The notes under the pieces: generated by a model
The model's input: only the letters and a program-made list of their open reading frames with translations
Database searches by the model: none
What the model was told of the DNA's origin: nothing
Assembly (NCBI GenBank): GCA_041497675.1
Contig: JBGQGY010000076.1
Location: 1-18,587 of the forward strand
Origin: a bacterium
Lineage (GTDB): Bacteria; Sysuimicrobiota; Sysuimicrobiia; Sysuimicrobiales; Humicultoraceae
DNA: 18,587 bases
Direction of reading: 5' to 3'
Translations under genes and position numbers: made by a program
In this document: piece by piece, positions 1-7,257 of the stretch
How the letters are laid out: every line of letters starts with the position of its first letter
How positions within the stretch are numbered: the stretch's first letter is position 1

Positions 1-974
1 AAGATCGGCACGTTGGCGCCGTCCATCGGATTCAACGCATAGGCGCCGATGAAGCAGCCGTCGCGATCCTTCTCGGTCGAGAGGCGCTCGATGTCCGATT
101 CGCGCGCGGCCTTGAACTTGTAGGCTTCGACCTCGGCGCGGCGATCGGACGTGGTCAGATGGTCGACCAGCGGGTGCTCGGGCGCGAGCACGCAGAAGGT
201 CATGCCGAAGACGGTATCGGGCCGCGTGGTGAAGACACGGAATGCGACGCCCGGATGCCCATTCACCGGAATCCCGAACTCGACGCCCTCGCTGCGGCCG
301 ATCCAGTTGGTCTGCAGCGTTTGCACCCGTTCCGGCCACTCGATCTGGGAGAAGTCAAGCAGTTCATCCGCATACGCCGTGATTTTGAGGAACCATTGCT
401 CGAGATTTTTCTTGATTACCGGCGTGCCACAGCGCTCGCACACGCGGTCCGCGCCGACCACCTGCTCCCGCGCCAGCGTCGTGTTGTCCTTTGGACACCA
501 GTCCACCGGCGCGAGCGCGCGGTAGGCGAGCCCGCGTTCGTGCATCTTGAGGAAGAACCACTGGTTCCACGTGTAGTAGTCGGGCCGGCAGGTGACGACC
601 TCGCGCGGCCAGTCCCACATGGCGCCCATCGAGCGCAGCTGCCGGCGCATCACGTCGATATTGCTCATCGTCCACTTGTAGGGATGGATGCCACGCGAGA
701 TGGCCGCGTTCTCCGCCGGCAGGCCGAAGGCATCGAAGCCCATCGGGAACATCACGTTGTAGCCCCGCATGCGCTTGTAACGGGCCGCGGCGTCCGAGGG
801 CGTCATGGCATACCAGTGCCCGATGTGCAGGTAGTCGCCCGACGGGTATGGGTACATGGTCACGAAGTAGAACTTGGGCCGCGGATCGCCGTCGCGCGCG
901 TGGTGCAGCCCATCGGCCTCCCAACGGGCCTGCCACTTTGGTTCGACGGCGCGCGAATCGTATCTCATCCTCAT
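1..974 (-). CDS. leuS: Leucyl-tRNA synthetase, N-terminal part (runs off the left edge; not in the ORF track)
   Basis: Manual translation from ATG 974 (or ATG 968) gives MRMRYDSRAVEPKWQARWEADG...KFYFVTMYPYPSGDYLHIGHWY, containing the class I HIGH motif. It continues with PMGFDAFGLPAENAA, WCPKDNTTLAREQV...CERCG, MQTNWIGRSEG and VFTTRPDTVFG, all typical of bacterial LeuRS. Confidence 0.97.
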   Translation of the reverse strand, partial: MRMRYDSRAVEPKWQARWEADGLHHARDGDPRPKFYFVTMYPYPSGDYLHIGHWYAMTPSDAAARYKRMRGYNVMFPMGFDAFGLPAENAAISRGIHPYKWTMSNIDVMRRQLRSMGAMWDWPREVVTCRPDYYTWNQWFFLKMHERGLAYRALAPVDWCPKDNTTLAREQVVGADRVCERCGTPVIKKNLEQWFLKITAYADELLDFSQIEWPERVQTLQTNWIGRSEGVEFGIPVNGHPGVAFRVFTTRPDTVFGMTFCVLAPEHPLVDHLTTSDRRAEVEAYKFKAARESDIERLSTEKDRDGCFIGAYALNPMDGANVPI

Positions 975-998
975 CGCAGGGGCCGGCGGCTCAGGACA

Positions 999-1931
999 CT
1001 AGGGCCGGGTCATCACCGGTACCGGGGTAAGCCACCCGTGCCGGTCGGGGATGCGGCCCTCCGTGATGCCAAAGAACTCATCCTGCAGCCGGCGCGTGAT
1101 GGGCCCCCTCCGCCCAGATCCCACGGGGACCTTATCAACGGACCGCACCGGTGTGATCTCGGCCGCGGTTCCAGTGAAGAAGACCTCGTCGGCGACGTAG
1201 AGCATCTCGCGCGGGAGCGGCATCTCCCGGATCTCGAGCCCCAGGTCGCGGCACAGCGCCGTCACCACCATGCGCGTGACGCCGGCCAGGATCGACGCCA
1301 CCAGCGGCGGCGTGTAGATCACGCCGTCGCGCACCAGGAACAGGTTTTCCCCGCTTCCCTCGCTGAGATACCCGTGCACGTCGAGGGCGATCCCTTCCGC
1401 GTACCCGTTGTCCACGGCTTCCATCACGATGAACGCCGAGTTGACGTAGTTCCCGCCGATCTTGCCCATCCCCGGGTGCGTGTCGGGCGCCATGCGCCGC
1501 CACGAACTCACCATGACGTCGACACCCTGCTCGATGGCCTCGGGACCGAGGTAGCGGCCCCACTCGATGGTCATGATGGCCATGTGCAGCGGGGACCGGC
1601 GAGGTTCCACGCTCCAAGATTCCACGCCGCGAAACACCAGGGGGCGTATGTAGCAGGACTGGTGACCGTTCGTGCTGACGGTCTCGAGGCACGCCTTCGA
1701 GAGCTGCTCCGCCGAATAGGGCAACGCCATCCGGAAGATCTTGCATGAATCCTGCAGGCGGCGAATGTGCGGGCTCAGACAGAAGGCCGCGGGGCCGCTC
1801 TGTGTTTCGTAGCACCTGATGCCTTCGAAGACGCTCGATCCATACTGCAGCGCGTGCGCCGCGACGTGGATCTTCGCGTCGTCCCATGGGACGAACTTGC
1901 CGTCAAACCAGATCCGCTCAGACGCCTTCAT
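999..1931 (-). CDS. ilvE: Branched-chain amino acid aminotransferase (fold-type IV PLP enzyme)
   Basis: Motifs HALQYGSSVFEGIRCY, YIRP, catalytic K in GKIGGNY, EGSGEN, ILAGVTR and TGTAAE. SD GGGAGG (1940-1945) lies 8 nt before the ATG. Confidence 0.95.
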   Translation of the reverse strand: MKASERIWFDGKFVPWDDAKIHVAAHALQYGSSVFEGIRCYETQSGPAAFCLSPHIRRLQDSCKIFRMALPYSAEQLSKACLETVSTNGHQSCYIRPLVFRGVESWSVEPRRSPLHMAIMTIEWGRYLGPEAIEQGVDVMVSSWRRMAPDTHPGMGKIGGNYVNSAFIVMEAVDNGYAEGIALDVHGYLSEGSGENLFLVRDGVIYTPPLVASILAGVTRMVVTALCRDLGLEIREMPLPREMLYVADEVFFTGTAAEITPVRSVDKVPVGSGRRGPITRRLQDEFFGITEGRIPDRHGWLTPVPVMTRP

Positions 1932-1963
1932 GTTCTCGCCCTCCCGGGGCTAAATACACCGAT

Positions 1964-1994
1964 GCCGCCCTCATCCCCACAGGACGAAGGCGGC
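1964..1994 (-). terminator. Terminator-like hairpin of the T-box element (no clear U-tract)
   Basis: GCCGCCTTCGTCCT-GTG-GGGATGAGGGCGGC forms a 14-bp stem with 3 G-U pairs. It overlaps the 3' half of the antiterminator, so the two are mutually exclusive. It is followed by ATCGGTGTATTT rather than a U-run. Confidence 0.65.
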
Positions 1995-2014
1995 CTCCGC
2001 GGTACCACCCATGG
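1977..2014 (-). promoter_or_regulatory. T-box antiterminator domain (no Stem I found)
   Basis: Minus strand reads AA-CCATGGG-TGGTACC-GCGGAGG-CCG-CCTTCGT-CCTGTGG. Helix A1 has 7 bp, the 7-nt UGGNACC bulge (N=U, fits discriminator A73) is at 2001-2007, and helix A2 has 7 bp. It lies upstream of ilvE-leuS, which are classic T-box targets. Confidence 0.88.
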
Positions 2015-2034
2015 TTGATGACGGGTGGAACATC

Positions 2035-2109
2035 TGGTGGAGCAGAAGGGAATTGAACCCTCAACCTCCCGCACGCCAAGCGGGCGCTCTCCCGGTGAGC
2101 TACTGCCCC
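2035..2109 (-). tRNA. tRNA-Ala (anticodon GGC), 75 nt, CCA encoded
   Basis: GGGGCAG TA GCTC ACCGGGA GAGC G CCCGC TTGGCGT GCGGG AGGTT GAGGG TTCAATT CCCTT CTGCTCC A CCA forms a full cloverleaf with the G3:U70 alanine identity pair and A73. Confidence 0.95.
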
Positions 2110-2131
2110 ACGCGTCACTCCCAATACACGG

Positions 2132-2161
2132 ATTATATCGGCGCGCTTCGAAGAGCGTCAA
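2132..2161 (-). promoter_or_regulatory. sigma70-type promoter for tRNA-Ala / T-box / ilvE-leuS
   Basis: -35 TTGACG (2156-2161, overlapping the upstream gene's TGA), 18-bp spacer, perfect -10 TATAAT (2132-2137). The predicted start is near 2125, about 15 nt before the tRNA. Confidence 0.85.
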
Positions 2162-3786
2162 GGCGCCTCGTTTGTGACGAGCACCCACCCTGTCGGCATC
2201 TCGAGCAAGATCGTAGGCCGCAGCCGGTTTCGCAGATTGGAATACGATTCGGGTTGAAGGACGCCAAAGACTCGCCCTTGGTGCCAGAGCCGCTCGACGG
2301 TGGCGTCGTCATCCGCGAACTGTATCGGTGGATCGAGCCAGTAGACCAACGGATTCGCTGCGGGCTTGTAGCCGCTGCGGAAGACCAACCGATCGCCTGG
2401 TCGGTAGAGTCGGTTGACGGTTGCGGCCACGGCGCGCCAGGGCCATAGGCGCTCCCAGTGCGTCGCAACGGCCCATCCCAGAACGCCGTAGGCCAGGAGT
2501 GTCCCGGCGCACAGGGCAGCCACGGCCGCGCGTGCGGTCCCTCGCCATGCCAGCGCGGCGAAGACCACGACGGACACCGCGACAACGCTGAGGAATGGCA
2601 CGAGCATCGGGCCATAGAAGACACGCACTTCTGTGGACTGGGATAATAACAGCCAAATATTAGCGCCGACTGCGGGGATGGCGACACCCGTGGTGACCAC
2701 AACCACGGGTCGCAGACCCCGTACGTCGTTCATTGACCGGATCAGCACCCGGGCCAAAAGCACGCACAGCGGTGGGAATAGCGGAAAGAGATAGCGGAAG
2801 ACCTTATCGCCCGGCGAGATCGACAACAGAACAAAGTGGAGACCGGCCCACAGCGCGCACAGGCGCAGCGCCGGCGGGCCCGTTCCAACCAGGCGCCATG
2901 CCTCCTGGACCACCCGCGGCAGCAGCCCAGTCCATGGAAAGGCCCAGATTGCCAGGATCGGTACGTACGCGATCACCGCTTGCCAGTAGGGCAGTGGTGC
3001 GCTCAATACCGGATGGAAGAAGCGTCCGACCCCGATGCCCGAGACGAACAACGCGTCGACGAAAGCCCTGCCATGCCGGAGTCCCTCGACAACGAACCAC
3101 GGAGCGGCGACGAGTGTGAACACGACCGCCCCGGCCGCAACCTGGGACCATCGCCAGTAGCCCACTTTCCCCGACGGAATGAGCATGTCTGCGGTAACGA
3201 CCAATCCGAAGACCGCAACCGCCACCAGGCCCTTGCTGAGAACCGCCGCCGCAATCCATACGCCCGCCAGGAGGGCCGCCCCGGTGTTGCCGCTGGTCCG
3301 GTATCGGAGATAGGCAACAAACCCCAGGGCAAGAAACACCGTGAGGGCGACATCCTGCTGCGGGGAGACGGACTGGTAAAAGCCCAGGAAGCTCGTCCCC
3401 AGCAGCAGCGCCGCAAGCACAGCCTCCTCCTGGCGTGCTGGTTCCGCCAAGCCCAGCCGGGAAAGACGGTAGGTCACCCCCAACAGGACGAGAGAGAGGG
3501 GCAGCTGCCAGATGCGGAGCGCCGCGCCGGTGGGACCGGTAACCCGGAGGACGAGTGCCATCAACCAGAACGTGAGCGGCGGTTTGTCCACGACCCACGA
3601 AGGCGACGGCCTGTGATGCAGTGTGACCCAGTCTCCCGACCGCAAAATTCCCTTCGCGATCTCTCCGAAGAACAGGGCGTCGCCGTCCACGTGCGGCATC
3701 AGGACACTTCCGGCGATCAGGAGGACGTCCAAGACGAGCAGCCCGAGCCAGACCTTCTCCCACCGGCGTGGACCGAACGGCGTCAT
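2158..3786 (-). CDS. ArnT/PMT_2-family (GT-C, GT83/GT39-like) integral membrane glycosyltransferase
   Basis: N-terminal DGD...EIAKGILRSGDW, DKPPLTFWL, LSKG, APWF, FPWTGLL, K-x-FRYLFPLFPP, with many hydrophobic helices. The acceptor substrate is unknown. Confidence 0.85.
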   Translation of the reverse strand: MTPFGPRRWEKVWLGLLVLDVLLIAGSVLMPHVDGDALFFGEIAKGILRSGDWVTLHHRPSPSWVVDKPPLTFWLMALVLRVTGPTGAALRIWQLPLSLVLLGVTYRLSRLGLAEPARQEEAVLAALLLGTSFLGFYQSVSPQQDVALTVFLALGFVAYLRYRTSGNTGAALLAGVWIAAAVLSKGLVAVAVFGLVVTADMLIPSGKVGYWRWSQVAAGAVVFTLVAAPWFVVEGLRHGRAFVDALFVSGIGVGRFFHPVLSAPLPYWQAVIAYVPILAIWAFPWTGLLPRVVQEAWRLVGTGPPALRLCALWAGLHFVLLSISPGDKVFRYLFPLFPPLCVLLARVLIRSMNDVRGLRPVVVVTTGVAIPAVGANIWLLLSQSTEVRVFYGPMLVPFLSVVAVSVVVFAALAWRGTARAAVAALCAGTLLAYGVLGWAVATHWERLWPWRAVAATVNRLYRPGDRLVFRSGYKPAANPLVYWLDPPIQFADDDATVERLWHQGRVFGVLQPESYSNLRNRLRPTILLEMPTGWVLVTNEAP

Positions 3787-3792
3787 CGAGCG

Positions 3793-4329
3793 CTAGTGAG
3801 GAGGGAGCACATCGAAACGGTGATCCTGGCCCCATGGCTGCGCGTCGCCCCTCAAGAGGCGCACAGCATGGTGCAGGATCGGGGCCAGGACATCCAGCCA
3901 CTCGCGAACCGCCTTGGGATTGCCGGGGAGATTGACGATCAGGGTACGCCCACGGACCCCCGCGACGGCCCGCGAGAGCATCGCCAGCGGTGTCTTCGCG
4001 GCCGTCTGCACCCGCGCGGCCTCCACCAACCCGGCCGCCAGACGATCGACCACCGCCAGCGTGGCCTCGGGCGTCACGTCGCGCGGGGCGAAGCCGCTCC
4101 CGCCGGTGGTCAGGACCAGCGCGGCGCCGTCGCGATCGGCGTAGTCGATGAGCCGCGCGCTGATGGCGTCTCGATCATCGGTCAAGACGTCACGCCGGAT
4201 GACCGTGGCCCCCAGACCTGCCAGGACCTCTGCGATCACATCGCCGCTGGTATCCGCGCCCTGTCCGCGCGCCACGGTGTCCGACAGCGTAAGGATGGCC
4301 GCCCGCACGCCGTCGAGCGTCCGGGTCAC
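3793..4329 (-). CDS. MogA/MoaB-family molybdopterin adenylyltransferase
   Basis: Motifs ILTLSD, DTSG, LTTGGSGFAPRDVTPEAT, MLSRAVAG and NLPGNPKAVRE. Start placed at GTG 4329 (GTGA overlap with moaC stop, SD GGAGG) rather than the ORF-track 4428. Confidence 0.92.
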   Translation of the reverse strand: MTRTLDGVRAAILTLSDTVARGQGADTSGDVIAEVLAGLGATVIRRDVLTDDRDAISARLIDYADRDGAALVLTTGGSGFAPRDVTPEATLAVVDRLAAGLVEAARVQTAAKTPLAMLSRAVAGVRGRTLIVNLPGNPKAVREWLDVLAPILHHAVRLLRGDAQPWGQDHRFDVLPPH

Positions 4330-4820
4330 AACGCCTCCCCGCGCCGGTTGTACGTGCCGCTCCGCCCGCCGCTCTTGTGAATCAGGCGTACACGGTCGAT
4401 CGTGATCCCCCGATCCGCGGCCTTGCACATGTCGTAGACGGTCAGCGCCGCCGCGGTCACGGCGACCAGCGCTTCCATTTCGACGCCCGTGCGCCCGGTC
4501 GTCCTCACCGTCGCTTCGATCCTGACCGCCGCCGCATCCGGCGCCGGTTCGACGCGCACCTGCACATCATCGAGCGGCAGCGGATGGCAGAGCGGGATCA
4601 GGTCCGCCGTCTTCTTGGCGGCCATCACTCCCGCCAGCTGCGCGACCGTCAGGACGTCACCTTTCGCCACCTGATTCGTGCGGATCAGCGCCAGCGTCTT
4701 GGGCTGCATGTGGACGTCCGCCCGTGCGACGGCGACGCGAGCCGTTCGCGCCTTCGCCGACACGTCGACCATGCGTGCCCGCCCTCGGCGGTCGACGTGT
4801 GTGAGTCGCGCCCTCTTCAC
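4326..4820 (-). CDS. moaC: Cyclic pyranopterin monophosphate synthase accessory protein MoaC
   Basis: Motifs LTHVD..G.ARMVDVSAK, KGDVL, LIPLCHP, TGVEMEAL, YDMCKA and KSGGRSG. GTG start overlaps the moeA stop. Confidence 0.97.
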   Translation of the reverse strand: MKRARLTHVDRRGRARMVDVSAKARTARVAVARADVHMQPKTLALIRTNQVAKGDVLTVAQLAGVMAAKKTADLIPLCHPLPLDDVQVRVEPAPDAAAVRIEATVRTTGRTGVEMEALVAVTAAALTVYDMCKAADRGITIDRVRLIHKSGGRSGTYNRRGEAL

Positions 4821-6064
4821 AGCAATCGCACCTCAACCTCCGCCCCTGCGGCGAACCCGTCCCCGCCCAACGGCACGACGACGATGCCGTCGGCCTCGGT
4901 GAGCGATGTGAGGATCTGCGAGCCGGCGGGCAGCGGCGCCGCCCAGAACCCGTCGGGGCGCATCTCCAGCTTGACCCGGCGATGATCCTCGCGAGGACCC
5001 GCCGACGGCAGTCGGGACGCCAGACGCGCCCGAACCCGGTGCCATCCGCGCGACGCGGGGTCCATCCCGAGGAGACGTTCCAACACCGGGCGCGCGAACA
5101 GGTCGAAGATGACCAGCGCGGATACGGGGTTCCCGGGCAACCCGATCACCGGCACCGAGCCGGCCGCTGCCAGCACGGTGGGTTTGCCCGGACGCACCGC
5201 GATGCCGTGGACGATGATCCCCGGCGGCCCAAGACGGGCGATGGCATCGGTGACGATGTCTCGCTCGCCGACCGACGACCCGCCGGAGACAAGCACCATG
5301 TCGTAGTCGGCGACGGCCCGGCGCAGCGCGGCTTCGACCGGCGCCAGCTCGTCACGAACGACACCGAGGATCTCAGGGATTCCACCCGAGGCCAGCACGG
5401 CGCCGGCGAGGGCGGCGCCGTTCATATCCCGCACTTTGCCCGGCTGCAGCGGGTCTTCCGCCGCCAGCACCTCATCGCCGGTCGAGAGAATGGCCACGCG
5501 CGGCTGGAGCGTCACCTGCACTCGCGGCCGGCCGATCCCAGCCAGAATCCCCAGGTCGGGCGCGCGAAGGCGGCGCCCTCGCGCAAACACGACCCGACCG
5601 GTGCGGACGTCGGCCCCTGCCGCGACGACGTTGTCCCCGGCCTTCACCGCGCGCTCGACGGCCACCGCGTCCTCGCCGTTCTGCACGTGCTCCTGCATGA
5701 CGACGGCGTCGGCGCCCTGGGGCAGCATCCCTCCGGTGGGAATCCGCACAGCCTCCCCGGACCCGACCGCGATCCCGGCGGGCGCGCCCATCCGGATCTC
5801 GCCCGCGTGACGCAGCCGCGCCGGTGTCTGTTGACTCGCCGTCTCGGTGTCGGCGGCGCGGACGGCCCAGCCGTCCACCAGCGATCGATCAAAGGGGGGC
5901 AGATCGTGGGGTGATACGATGTCTAGCGCGAGCACGCGTCCAAGCGCCTGCACCAGCGGGACATGCTCGGTGCCGCGCGGCGCCACTCGCAGCGCCGCGT
6001 CATACGCGGCCCGAGCTTCTTGTGGGGTGTGCAGCCGGCCGAACGCCTTGGTCGGGGCGGTCAG
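4817..6064 (-). CDS. moeA: Molybdopterin molybdotransferase MoeA (gephyrin-like); probable CTG start
   Basis: Motifs ALGRVLA, PPFDRSLVDGWAV, GADAVVMQE, ILSTGDE, SGGSSVG, RPGKP and LPGNPVS. The ORF-track N-terminal 137 aa overlap kbl and look spurious. Start inferred at CTG 6062-6064 (CTGA overlap with kbl stop, SD GGAGTGAT 6 nt upstream). Confidence 0.93.
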   Translation of the reverse strand: MTAPTKAFGRLHTPQEARAAYDAALRVAPRGTEHVPLVQALGRVLALDIVSPHDLPPFDRSLVDGWAVRAADTETASQQTPARLRHAGEIRMGAPAGIAVGSGEAVRIPTGGMLPQGADAVVMQEHVQNGEDAVAVERAVKAGDNVVAAGADVRTGRVVFARGRRLRAPDLGILAGIGRPRVQVTLQPRVAILSTGDEVLAAEDPLQPGKVRDMNGAALAGAVLASGGIPEILGVVRDELAPVEAALRRAVADYDMVLVSGGSSVGERDIVTDAIARLGPPGIIVHGIAVRPGKPTVLAAAGSVPVIGLPGNPVSALVIFDLFARPVLERLLGMDPASRGWHRVRARLASRLPSAGPREDHRRVKLEMRPDGFWAAPLPAGSQILTSLTEADGIVVVPLGGDGFAAGAEVEVRLL

Positions 6065-7257
6065 GACGAGATCACTCCCAGCGCCGTGCCCGCGCGCTGG
6101 AACGCCGCCAGCGCGCGTTCGAGGTGCTCTACCGTATGCCCGGCTGTCACGATCGTTCGGACGCGCGCCTTGCCCCGGGGGACCGTCGGAAACGCCAGAC
6201 CGACCGCGAACACGCCCTCCTCGAAGAGACGGTCGGAGAACTGCATGGCCCGCGCCTCGTCGCCGATGATGACCGGGGTGATGGGCGTCTCGCTGTTGCC
6301 CGTGTCGAACCCGAGCCGGCGCAACCCGTCTTTGAAGAACCGGGTGTTGTCCCACAGACGCCGGATCAGATCGGGTTCGTGCTGCACTAGCCGGACGGCG
6401 GCAAGCGCAGACGCCGCGACCGACGGTGGGTGAGAGGTGGAGAAGAGCAGCGGCCGCGCACGATGCATCAGCCATTCGATCAGCGCCCGGGATCCCGCGA
6501 CGTAGCCGCCGAGTCCGGCGAACGCCTTCGAGAGCGTTCCCACCTGGACGTGCACCCGGCCGTGCATCCCGAAGTGGTCGACGGTGCCGCGGCCGTCCTT
6601 CCCGACGACGCCGCTGGCGTGCGCGTCGTCGACCATCATGATCGCGCCATACTCTTCCGCGGCCGCCACCAGATCGGGGAGCGGCGCGATGTCACCGTCC
6701 ATGCTGAATACGCCGTCGGTGATCAACAGCACGCGCCGCGCGCCTCGTGATTCTGCGAGCATCCGGCGGGCCGCGCCGACATCCTTGTGGGGATAGATCT
6801 TCTTGTCGGCGCCTGAGAGGCGGCACCCGTCGATGAGGCTCGCGTGGTTCAACTCGTCGCTGACCACGACGTCGCCCTTCTCGAGGATCGCGGCGACCGT
6901 GCCGGCATTGGCGCTGAACCCGGACTGGTACAGCAGCGTGGCCTCGGTGTGTTTGAAGGCGGCGAGTTCCGTCTCGAGCTCCTGGTGGATGCTCATGTTG
7001 CCGGCGATCGTCCTGACGGCACCCGATCCCACACCGAACCGCGCCACGGCCTCCAACGCCGCGGCTTTCAACGCGGGGTGATTGGCCAGCCCCAGATAGT
7101 TGTTGGAACAGAGGTTGATGACCTCGCGGCCGTCGTAGCGCGCCACCGCCTCCTGGGGGCTCTCGAGCAATCGCGGCCACCGCCAGACGCCGCGCGTCTT
7201 CGCGTCGGCCAGCAGCTCCTCGACAAATATCAGGGGGTTGGCGTGCTCAACTTTCAA
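6061..7257 (-). CDS. kbl: 2-amino-3-ketobutyrate CoA ligase (glycine C-acetyltransferase; AONS/BioF family)
   Basis: Motifs NLCSNNYLGL, SDELNHASLIDG, TDGVFSMDGD, DDAH, GTLSKA and RARPLLFST. It is adjacent to tdh, and its TTG start overlaps the tdh 3' end. Confidence 0.9.
   Translation of the reverse strand: MKVEHANPLIFVEELLADAKTRGVWRWPRLLESPQEAVARYDGREVINLCSNNYLGLANHPALKAAALEAVARFGVGSGAVRTIAGNMSIHQELETELAAFKHTEATLLYQSGFSANAGTVAAILEKGDVVVSDELNHASLIDGCRLSGADKKIYPHKDVGAARRMLAESRGARRVLLITDGVFSMDGDIAPLPDLVAAAEEYGAIMMVDDAHASGVVGKDGRGTVDHFGMHGRVHVQVGTLSKAFAGLGGYVAGSRALIEWLMHRARPLLFSTSHPPSVAASALAAVRLVQHEPDLIRRLWDNTRFFKDGLRRLGFDTGNSETPITPVIIGDEARAMQFSDRLFEEGVFAVGLAFPTVPRGKARVRTIVTAGHTVEHLERALAAFQRAGTALGVISS

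Follow-up and report, generated by a model that had tools for sequence, protein, structure and literature searches.

A leucine-type T-box leader with a tRNA-Ala gene in the loop of its Stem III, and a probably truncated version of it in one bacterial genome

The DNA analyzed here (hereafter called the window, a stretch of 18,587 nucleotides) carries on its minus strand a leader region, followed by an ilvE-like aminotransferase gene and the 5' part of leuS (Table 1). An earlier note on this DNA had recognized in the region a tRNA, a T-box bulge, an antiterminator and terminator, and the downstream genes ilvE-leuS; all of these identifications are right. The tRNA is a tRNA-Ala(GGC) with a G3:U70 pair, A as discriminator and an encoded CCA, and it scores 63.2 bits with the Rfam tRNA model, which has a cut-off of 29. 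The promoter in front of it agrees with the sigma-70 consensus at 11 of 12 positions. One such site was counted where shuffled sequences lead one to expect 0.1, and a promoter scan found no second promoter-like site in 1..2200 of the window. An upstream ORF of the PMT_2 family ends in this promoter, with its stop codon (2160..2158) inside the -35 hexamer. This glycosyltransferase ORF (542 aa) has no counterpart in the locus of any relative; the upstream neighborhood has therefore been rearranged. Further upstream on the same strand, at 3793..6475, are molybdenum-cofactor genes (for a MoCF_biosynth protein and a MoeA-like protein), which are apparently unrelated.

The antiterminator of the window can be built in silico from standard base pairs. 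In the predicted folds the terminator takes over its 3' half (1994..1981), i.e. the two structures have a strand in common and are mutually exclusive. The U-tract that follows (UAUUUAGC) is below the scan rule of 5 T in 8; its strength is about that of the tails in relatives, and it is no weaker than in some of them. The Rfam T-box model (RF00230) aligns with only a fragment of the window (12.4 bits, E=1.8, model positions 187-216 of 219), and the Rfam search returned no match in the window at the gathering cut-off of 93 bits. A translational T-box, in which the ribosome-binding site is sequestered, is unsupported, since this site is not part of the terminator helix. How strong the terminator is, how the tRNA is processed and where transcription starts are all deduced from the sequence.

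Table 1. Features of the leader region and its downstream genes, in coordinates of the window except in the last row, which refers to other loci.
Feature	Position	Strand	Basis or remark
Sigma-70-type promoter	2161..2132	-	-35 TTGACG 2161..2156, 18-nt spacer, -10 TATAAT 2137..2132
5' leader, 16 nt	2125..2110	-	Sequence; transcription start ~2125 inferred
Purine motif GGGAG	2122..2118	-	Part of 5' leader
Stem III 5' strand (G)UGACG	2118..2113	-	CGU then leads to the tRNA; register from RNAduplex and covariance model
tRNA-Ala(GGC) gene	2109..2035	-	ARAGORN; in loop of T-box Stem III
Trailer, 25 nt	between tRNA-Ala and T-box core	-	Sequence
Trailer segment GUUCCACCCGU	2031..2021	-	Complementary to T-box 2012..2002
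Stem III 3' strand CGUCAU	2023..2018	-	Followed by C and conserved AA 2016..2015
T-box core GGGUGGUACCGCG	2010..1998	-	Sequence
T-box and antiterminator	2010..1981	-	Sequence; folding; partial Rfam match
Helix A1	GGG 2010..2008 with CCU 1983..1981	-	Antiterminator
Bulge UGGUACC, 7 nt	2007..2001	-	Between helices A1 and A2
Helix A2	2000..1994 with 1990..1984	-	Antiterminator
Terminator helix	extended 2001..1957, core hairpin 1994..1964	-	Minimum-energy fold
Weak U-tract UAUUUAGC	1956..1949	-	3' of terminator helix
Ribosome-binding site GGGAGGG	~1945..1939	-	Ahead of ilvE-like gene
ilvE-like class IV aminotransferase gene	1931..999	-	Start ATG 1931..1929; Aminotran_4, E=3.5e-47
leuS 5' part (leucyl-tRNA synthetase)	974..3	-	tRNA-synt_1 and LeuRS editing domain; runs off the window
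Extra upstream tRNA genes	L057 1825..1949; L005 3369..3481; L047 2546..2662; L021 2564..2639; L063 2618..2691		Other loci

Relatives of this leader were collected by scanning 185,579 species genomes with a pattern that demands a tRNA T-arm, an acceptor end and CCA, and then GGTGGNACCRCG within 8-38 nt. At least 120 genomes have a tRNA no more than 38 nt ahead of a T-box core. ARAGORN called tRNA-Ala(GGC) in 115 of the 120 listed loci; the rest are one Thr, one Ser and three without a call, and in two of these three the tRNA is cut by the contig end. The distance from the end of the tRNA-Ala to the T-box core is 9-37 nt among the matches listed. By label, about 51 of the 120 listed loci are of Chloroflexota type and about 47 of Bacillota type, two are Armatimonadota and two Candidatus Fervidifonticultor (phylum Ca. 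Sysuimicrobiota); the remaining ones belong to Coprothermobacterota, Caldisericota or Atribacteria or are unlabelled. The leader is also present in L007, L061, L027 and L084, which are labelled proteobacterium, Proteobacteria, Methylocystaceae or Solirubrobacterales. These four labels may result from mis-binning or from a transfer of the leader.

Downstream of the listed leaders the first ORF is mostly leuS and in some cases ilvE, a GNAT acetyltransferase or an AMP-binding enzyme; the LeuRS fragment of the window was matched in 104 of the 120 loci. The Rfam T-box model aligned over its full length (positions 1-219) across the tRNA in all 20 short loci that were aligned, and 14 of them reached the 93-bit cut-off (top score 133.7 bits). 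All 20 alignments place the tRNA as an insert within the Stem III loop. The relatives have a Stem I, a CUC specifier, and a Stem II and IIA/B region with F-boxes of the CCGUUA type; in their T-box alignments the specifier is seen as GAA-CUC (Leu). A strict regular expression for the specifier gave CUC in 59 of 116 leaders, no candidate in 54 and other triplets in 3. Judged by these alignments, the leaders are leucine-type T-boxes of the leuS operon, with a tRNA-Ala(GGC) inside the Stem III loop.

Some of these operons contain additional genes. A GNAT acetyltransferase gene (~190 aa) is located between leader and leuS in many Limnocylindria-type loci (e.g. L010, L022, L029 and L051) and in other Limnocylindria/Chloroflexia loci. 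The AMP-binding enzyme (~553 aa) is the first gene in L013, L034 and L078, which are of Desulfotomaculia type. Neither gene has an obvious connection with leucine.

The strands that flank the tRNA in the window read GGGAG-UGACG...CGUCA-UC-AA, which fits 5'-RRRNG and AA-3'. A motif of the form RRRNG...AA flanks Stem III of T-boxes according to TBDB. These flanks, together with the Rfam alignment across the tRNA, therefore identify the tRNA-flanking strands as Stem III. The assignment was examined in the family in several ways. With anchored strands and no optimization, 5.39 of 7 positions pair in 102 loci (14 were dropped where the anchor was not found), compared with 4.03 +/- 0.09 after permutation (maximum 4.34 in 1000 trials). 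A MAFFT alignment of 20 leaders, hand-picked for similar geometry, has double changes in six of the seven Stem III pairs, and 93.8% of its cells pair. Double changes occur in all six modelled pairs of a covariance-model alignment with 109 matches, which is biased toward the structure it was fitted to and has about a dozen unrelated tRNAs among its matches; here 87-91.5% of the cells pair. A model of Stem III, tRNA and T-box (R1) matches the window over its full length with 97.3 bits (E=6e-23), and five of the six Stem III pairs form when the window is placed in the R1 register. The window thus has the order of elements typical of the nested leaders, in which Stem III with the enclosed tRNA-Ala(GGC) is succeeded by AA, a spacer of 3-5 nt and the T-box core.

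Cognate leader/trailer pairs have a median of -11.7 kcal/mol versus -7.3 kcal/mol for non-cognate ones, and 18 of 115 beat 95% of the non-cognates; this signal is diluted because many loci are close relatives with a common stem. When the 25-nt leader was simply shuffled and paired with the trailer, which is a weak test for short stems, the median z was -1.5 and the window had a z of 0.1. A column-based test on a MAFFT alignment of 114 sequences was dropped, as leaders of 18 nt were misaligned in it. From the Rfam alignments and the covariation we conclude that the outer 6-8 pairs of the leader-trailer helix are an ordinary T-box Stem III, conserved and covarying. Several Chloroflexota loci contain extra tRNA genes a few hundred nt upstream of the leader, with no T-box core after them. 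Second full-length matches of R1 in L057, L005 and L047 fell on other tRNA genes that have no T-box core behind them and were rejected.

The cloverleaf of the nested tRNA is 99.7% paired across 114 distinct family sequences, with compensatory changes in 15 of the 21 pairs; none of 500 shuffles reached the values for pairing or for changes. G3:U70 is present in all 114 distinct nested tRNAs, while the anticodon GGC and the ACCA end are found in all 116 leaders, always with an encoded CCA. A U at position -1 occurs in 94 of 116; this is the base preferred by bacterial RNase P. On these features the nested tRNA-Ala looks functional, and it is from the intact cloverleaf, the G3:U70 pair, the encoded CCA and the U at -1 that we infer its excision from the leader.

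A tRNA so close to a T-box raises the question of whether it is read by it. The ACCA end of the nested tRNA is complementary to the UGGU of the bulge at a distance of 25-30 nt, and pairing of the two in cis could provide a built-in ligand for antitermination. However, the discriminator of the nested tRNA is A throughout, whereas the variable base of the T-box, U in 112 leaders, is A in two others and C in two. Four of 116 leaders thus combine a bulge with UGGA or UGGC and an unchanged ACCA end, from which it follows that the nested tRNA is not what the T-box reads. Furthermore, the relatives have a complete Leu-specific front half, and the nested tRNA has no free 3' end; tRNAs extended at this end are not known to support antitermination. 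We regard such a cis ligand as extremely unlikely, and the variable-base mismatches and the full-length Leu T-box of the relatives led us to reject it. The exceptions in the variable base are L075 and L110 (GGTGGAACC) and L090 and L107 (GGTGGCACC), all with A as discriminator of the nested tRNA-Ala. L090 and L107, which keep leuS and the CUC specifier, may have a tRNA-Leu with an unusual discriminator or tolerate an imperfect match. The idea that the anticodon GGC serves as a specifier for tRNA-Gly(GCC) was also discarded: the leaders have their own CUC specifier and a leuS operon, and UGGU fits A73.

The proteins encoded in the window are closely related to those behind complete leaders. The IlvE is ~80% identical to the products of genes that follow the same leader in L074, L062 and L041, and the LeuRS is ~83% identical to that of L074 and L062. 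The front half of the leader is, however, missing in the window. A search with Rfam found no Stem I, specifier or Stem II in 1900..2420, and Rfam and nhmmer found no Stem I with specifier loop, K-turn and distal platform in the window. Stem II and the IIA/B pseudoknot (F-box) are not in the window either, where only 22 nt separate the -10 hexamer from the tRNA; in six relatives this distance is 172-225 nt. An nhmmer profile of the front half matched 109 of the 116 leaders but not the window. The six other leaders without a match include four that have the front half by alignment, one that is divergent and one that is cut by the contig end. Clade-specific and general nhmmer profiles gave nothing in the whole 18.6-kb window, while the control L083 was found with E=4.5e-19. 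The window is the only Stem I-less leader among the 116.

What has been retained in the window is intact, including the GGGAG...AA flanks, the T-box and the antiterminator. The promoter aligns with those of L069, L041 and L074, and T-box core plus antiterminator are identical to those of L062 over about 29 nt, through GGGUGGUACCGCGGAGGCCGCCUUCGUCC. Such an identity, in spite of only ~80% identity between the proteins, is unexpected if the function of the module was lost long ago. The simplest reading of these alignments is a deletion of about 180-200 nt that removed Stem I, specifier and Stem II. In L083, a close relative, the Stem I ahead of the tRNA (~85..240 of that locus) is greatly reduced, with ~70 distal alignment columns missing; the specifier loop GAA-CUC and Stem II are still there. 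By alignment, L091 with a full Stem I, L083 with a short one and the window with none look like a reduction series within one clade.

The gap could also be an assembly error or a very recent, strain-level mutation, in which case the real leader or a second leuS locus would have the full T-box. That the window is the sole such leader among 116, that its upstream gene has no counterpart in the loci of relatives, and that the remaining module is perfectly conserved, as fits a recent event, would all agree with this. But both edges of the gap resemble the relatives: one consists of the promoter with the first nucleotides, the other of the purine motif with Stem III. This is unexpected for a chimeric join, and the junction contains neither repeats nor Ns. 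We consider an artefact or a very recent lesion decidedly unlikely.

The earlier note had proposed that the trailer of the tRNA is the moving part of a built-in switch. Both helices on which this proposal rests were recounted exactly. The leader plus tRNA 5' end (2118..2104) pairs with the trailer (2032..2018) at 14 of 15 positions, with three G-U pairs and one C.C mismatch, and the trailer segment 2031..2021 pairs with the T-box (2012..2002) at 10 of 11. The same segment, extended by 2032 and 2020..2018, is thus complementary to the leader plus the acceptor 5' strand. The 15-nt duplex of leader, acceptor and trailer has an energy of -19.5 kcal/mol compared with -11.9 +/- 2.7 kcal/mol for 500 shuffled trailers (p=0.004); for the duplex of trailer and T-box the values are -14.3 kcal/mol and a mean of -8.9 kcal/mol in 200 shuffles (p=0.01). 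These two p values are not independent, as one trailer segment serves both helices. The segment contains an acceptor-end-like UCCA and shares CACCCGUCA with the 3' strand of Stem III of L083. As to the note's description of the trailer as a degenerate copy of the tRNA 3' end, 8 of 10 positions do match the last 10 nt of the tRNA; among 115 leaders this level is reached in two, the window and L120.

Nearest-neighbor folding agrees with the view that, in the window sequence, the trailer can choose between two partners, one upstream and the other in the T-box. As long as the T-box has not been transcribed, the minimum-energy fold is the extended leader:trailer helix; once it is transcribed, the cloverleaf with the trailer:T-box hairpin and the terminator takes its place. 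Three folds were compared on 2125..1978. The cloverleaf with Stem III and antiterminator has -42.6 kcal/mol as drawn and -50.7 kcal/mol with the rest refolded. With the trailer:T-box hairpin the cloverleaf reaches -52.4 kcal/mol as drawn and -57.8 kcal/mol refolded, which is the minimum-energy fold, and the extended leader:trailer helix has -55.2 kcal/mol refolded. The three thus span ~7 kcal/mol, and the fold with the trailer:T-box hairpin is 7-10 kcal/mol below the antiterminator fold. Taken alone, the trailer:T-box hairpin has -13.4 kcal/mol and Stem III of the window -3.1 kcal/mol.

The earlier note itself had named conservation of the switch in relatives as the refuting test, and both pairings that would make the switch fail it. 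Among 116 leaders, four have a trailer:T-box pairing better than that of shuffles, a number at chance level, and the family median is -5.35 kcal/mol; the window ranks second of the 116, while its close relatives are at ~0. When the cloverleaf is enforced, pairing of the bulge with the trailer has a median predicted probability of 0.0; this probability exceeds 0.5 in 6 of 114 leaders and is 0.75 in the window, 0.45 in L083 and at most 0.01 in L062, L074, L091, L041, L068, L069 and L073. Masking of the T-box by the trailer is hence a property of a lineage-specific segment and not a conserved anti-antiterminator. Pairing between the acceptor 5' strand and the trailer beats shuffles in only 2 of 116 leaders. 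Thus the outer part of the proposed leader-trailer helix is conserved, as the covarying Stem III, and its extension into the acceptor is not. The fold that disrupts the acceptor is favored by 3.3 kcal/mol in the window; over the family the median is 0.25 and the maximum 5.9 kcal/mol, and 32 of 114 leaders have a minimum-energy fold without an intact acceptor stem. The value of the window is within this spread, and the window is therefore not unusual among leaders with apparently functional tRNAs.

These results bear on the switch in its original form, in which leader:trailer pairing leaves the T-box free (ON) and gives way to trailer:T-box pairing (OFF) once the cloverleaf has formed or the leader has been cleaved off by RNase P, so that ilvE-leuS expression would be coupled to the folding or maturation of pre-tRNA-Ala. 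The two helices are present, beat shuffles and exclude each other (2026..2021 is common to both); the predicted minimum-energy fold changes over as the T-box gets transcribed, all three folds are within about 7 kcal/mol, and the loss of Stem I would leave room for a new input. On the other hand, the numbers of leaders in which the acceptor extension (2/116) and the trailer:T-box pairing (4/116) beat shuffles are small, the 3.3 kcal/mol advantage is within the spread of the family, and we are dealing with a single instance. The ON state also lacks a holder: a freed T-box does not by itself stabilize the antiterminator, no uncharged tRNA is recruited without Stem I, and hence no effector would hold the antiterminator. 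Coupling to tRNA maturation is in our judgment very unlikely, and the built-in switch looks like a local quirk rather than a conserved device.

The explanation that we favor, and think somewhat more probable than all others combined, is that the window contains a truncated T-box which is now a fixed attenuator behind a tRNA gene, and not a conserved two-state switch. The region would be the 3' half (Stem III, antiterminator and terminator) of a leucine-type T-box leader that serves ilvE-leuS. A normal front half with Stem I and CUC, Stem II and IIA/B appears to precede the nested tRNA in at least 115 other genomes. There, as is known of T-boxes, uncharged tRNA-Leu would bind to Stem I and to the T-box bulge and hold the antiterminator in the usual way; the nested tRNA-Ala would be a passenger, which is later cut out of terminated and read-through transcripts alike. 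In the window, tRNA-Leu could no longer be recruited because Stem I is absent, and the promoter, still like that of the relatives, now stands 22 nt ahead of the tRNA. Pairing of the lineage-specific trailer segment with the UGGU bulge and helix A1 would, judged by the predicted energies, favor the terminator. The promoter would then mainly make pre-tRNA-Ala, and ilvE-leuS would presumably be reached by those polymerases that read through the terminator with its weak U-tract.

A fixed attenuator at this place would have a price. The gene leuS is normally essential, and there is no other promoter-like site in 1..2200; strong termination by default therefore looks costly. A rival explanation is a minimal T-box without Stem I, in which the discriminator half (RRRNG-Stem III-AA and the antiterminator) captures the ACCA 3' ends of uncharged tRNAs and the anticodon is not read, i.e. 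a sensor of low affinity and no specificity. Binding of tRNA 3' ends has been reported for T-box discriminator domains in isolation. In the window the antiterminator, the T-box core and the GGGAG...AA flanks have all been preserved in full, and the much shortened Stem I of L083 suggests a stepwise reduction in the clade. However, the bulge is predicted to be occupied by the trailer:T-box hairpin (probability 0.75), Stem III of the window is weak (-3.1 kcal/mol), no T-box is known to work without Stem I, and again there is a single instance. We therefore judge a minimal T-box to be unlikely.

Two helices that are improbable by chance, in the sole leader without Stem I, could also speak for rewiring instead of decay. 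According to a bolder version of this idea, the leader was rewired after the loss of Stem I as a self-contained switch: an acceptor-end decoy in cis (UCCA-CCC, in the trailer) would compete with Stem III for the T-box, and the folding of pre-tRNA-Ala or RNase P would set the level of read-through. More widely, excision of the nested tRNA-Ala would then be an integral and selected step in the working or reset of the Leu T-box and not a frozen accident. We hold this combined proposal to be distinctly improbable. Only one Stem I-less leader has been seen, and a single case gives no basis for estimating its age or the selection acting on it.

T-box leaders are the best-studied tRNA-binding RNAs. 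Leaders with a nested tRNA span Chloroflexota, Bacillota, genomes labelled Sysuimicrobiota or Armatimonadota, Coprothermobacterota, Caldisericota and Atribacteria, and they indicate that the Stem III loop tolerates a folded insert of 76 nt. One transcript is here both a riboswitch and a tRNA precursor, which raises the question of whether the riboswitch decides before or after RNase P cuts. In genome annotation, tRNA and T-box overlap in these leaders. The window offers a natural experiment, in which the half of a T-box that senses aminoacylation stands without the half that reads the tRNA.

The closest known system is the canonical transcriptional T-box (RF00230) of the leucine class ahead of leuS. 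The window has in common with it the T-box core, a bulge of 7 nt that contains UGGU, the use of one strand by both antiterminator and terminator, a Stem III with RRRNG...AA and a downstream aminoacyl-tRNA synthetase operon. It differs in the complete tRNA-Ala(GGC) gene in the Stem III loop, in the absence of the whole front half and in a score below the Rfam cut-off. Reduced T-boxes with an ultrashort Stem I are known from the actinobacterial ileS type. They are a natural example of a shortened tRNA-recognition domain and in this comparable to L083, which keeps the specifier loop; yet these ileS leaders retain the specifier and the contacts of Stem II, while the window retains neither. A second comparison is with tRNA genes that are co-transcribed with protein genes, where processing frees the tRNA from an mRNA leader, and a third with classical attenuators, in which an upstream anti-antiterminator segment masks the antiterminator and favors termination. 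Neither system has a riboswitch helix around a tRNA, and the masking helix of the window occurs in one genome and has no known input.

No description of a tRNA gene inside a T-box leader was found in the full-text literature searched (supplements and most subscription journals lie outside it) or in the accessible parts of TBDB and of Wels et al. 2008. The nested architecture may thus be undescribed in that literature, and it may be in print elsewhere. An insertion of another kind is stem Sa of the staphylococcal glyS T-box, which is lineage-specific according to the available text of PMC9177973. As portrayed there, stem Sa resembles the nested tRNA in being a large, clade-conserved insertion that is tolerated in a T-box leader. 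In the same text, however, stem Sa sits in the antiterminator/terminator domain and contains no gene, whereas the insert described here is a functional-looking tRNA in Stem III.
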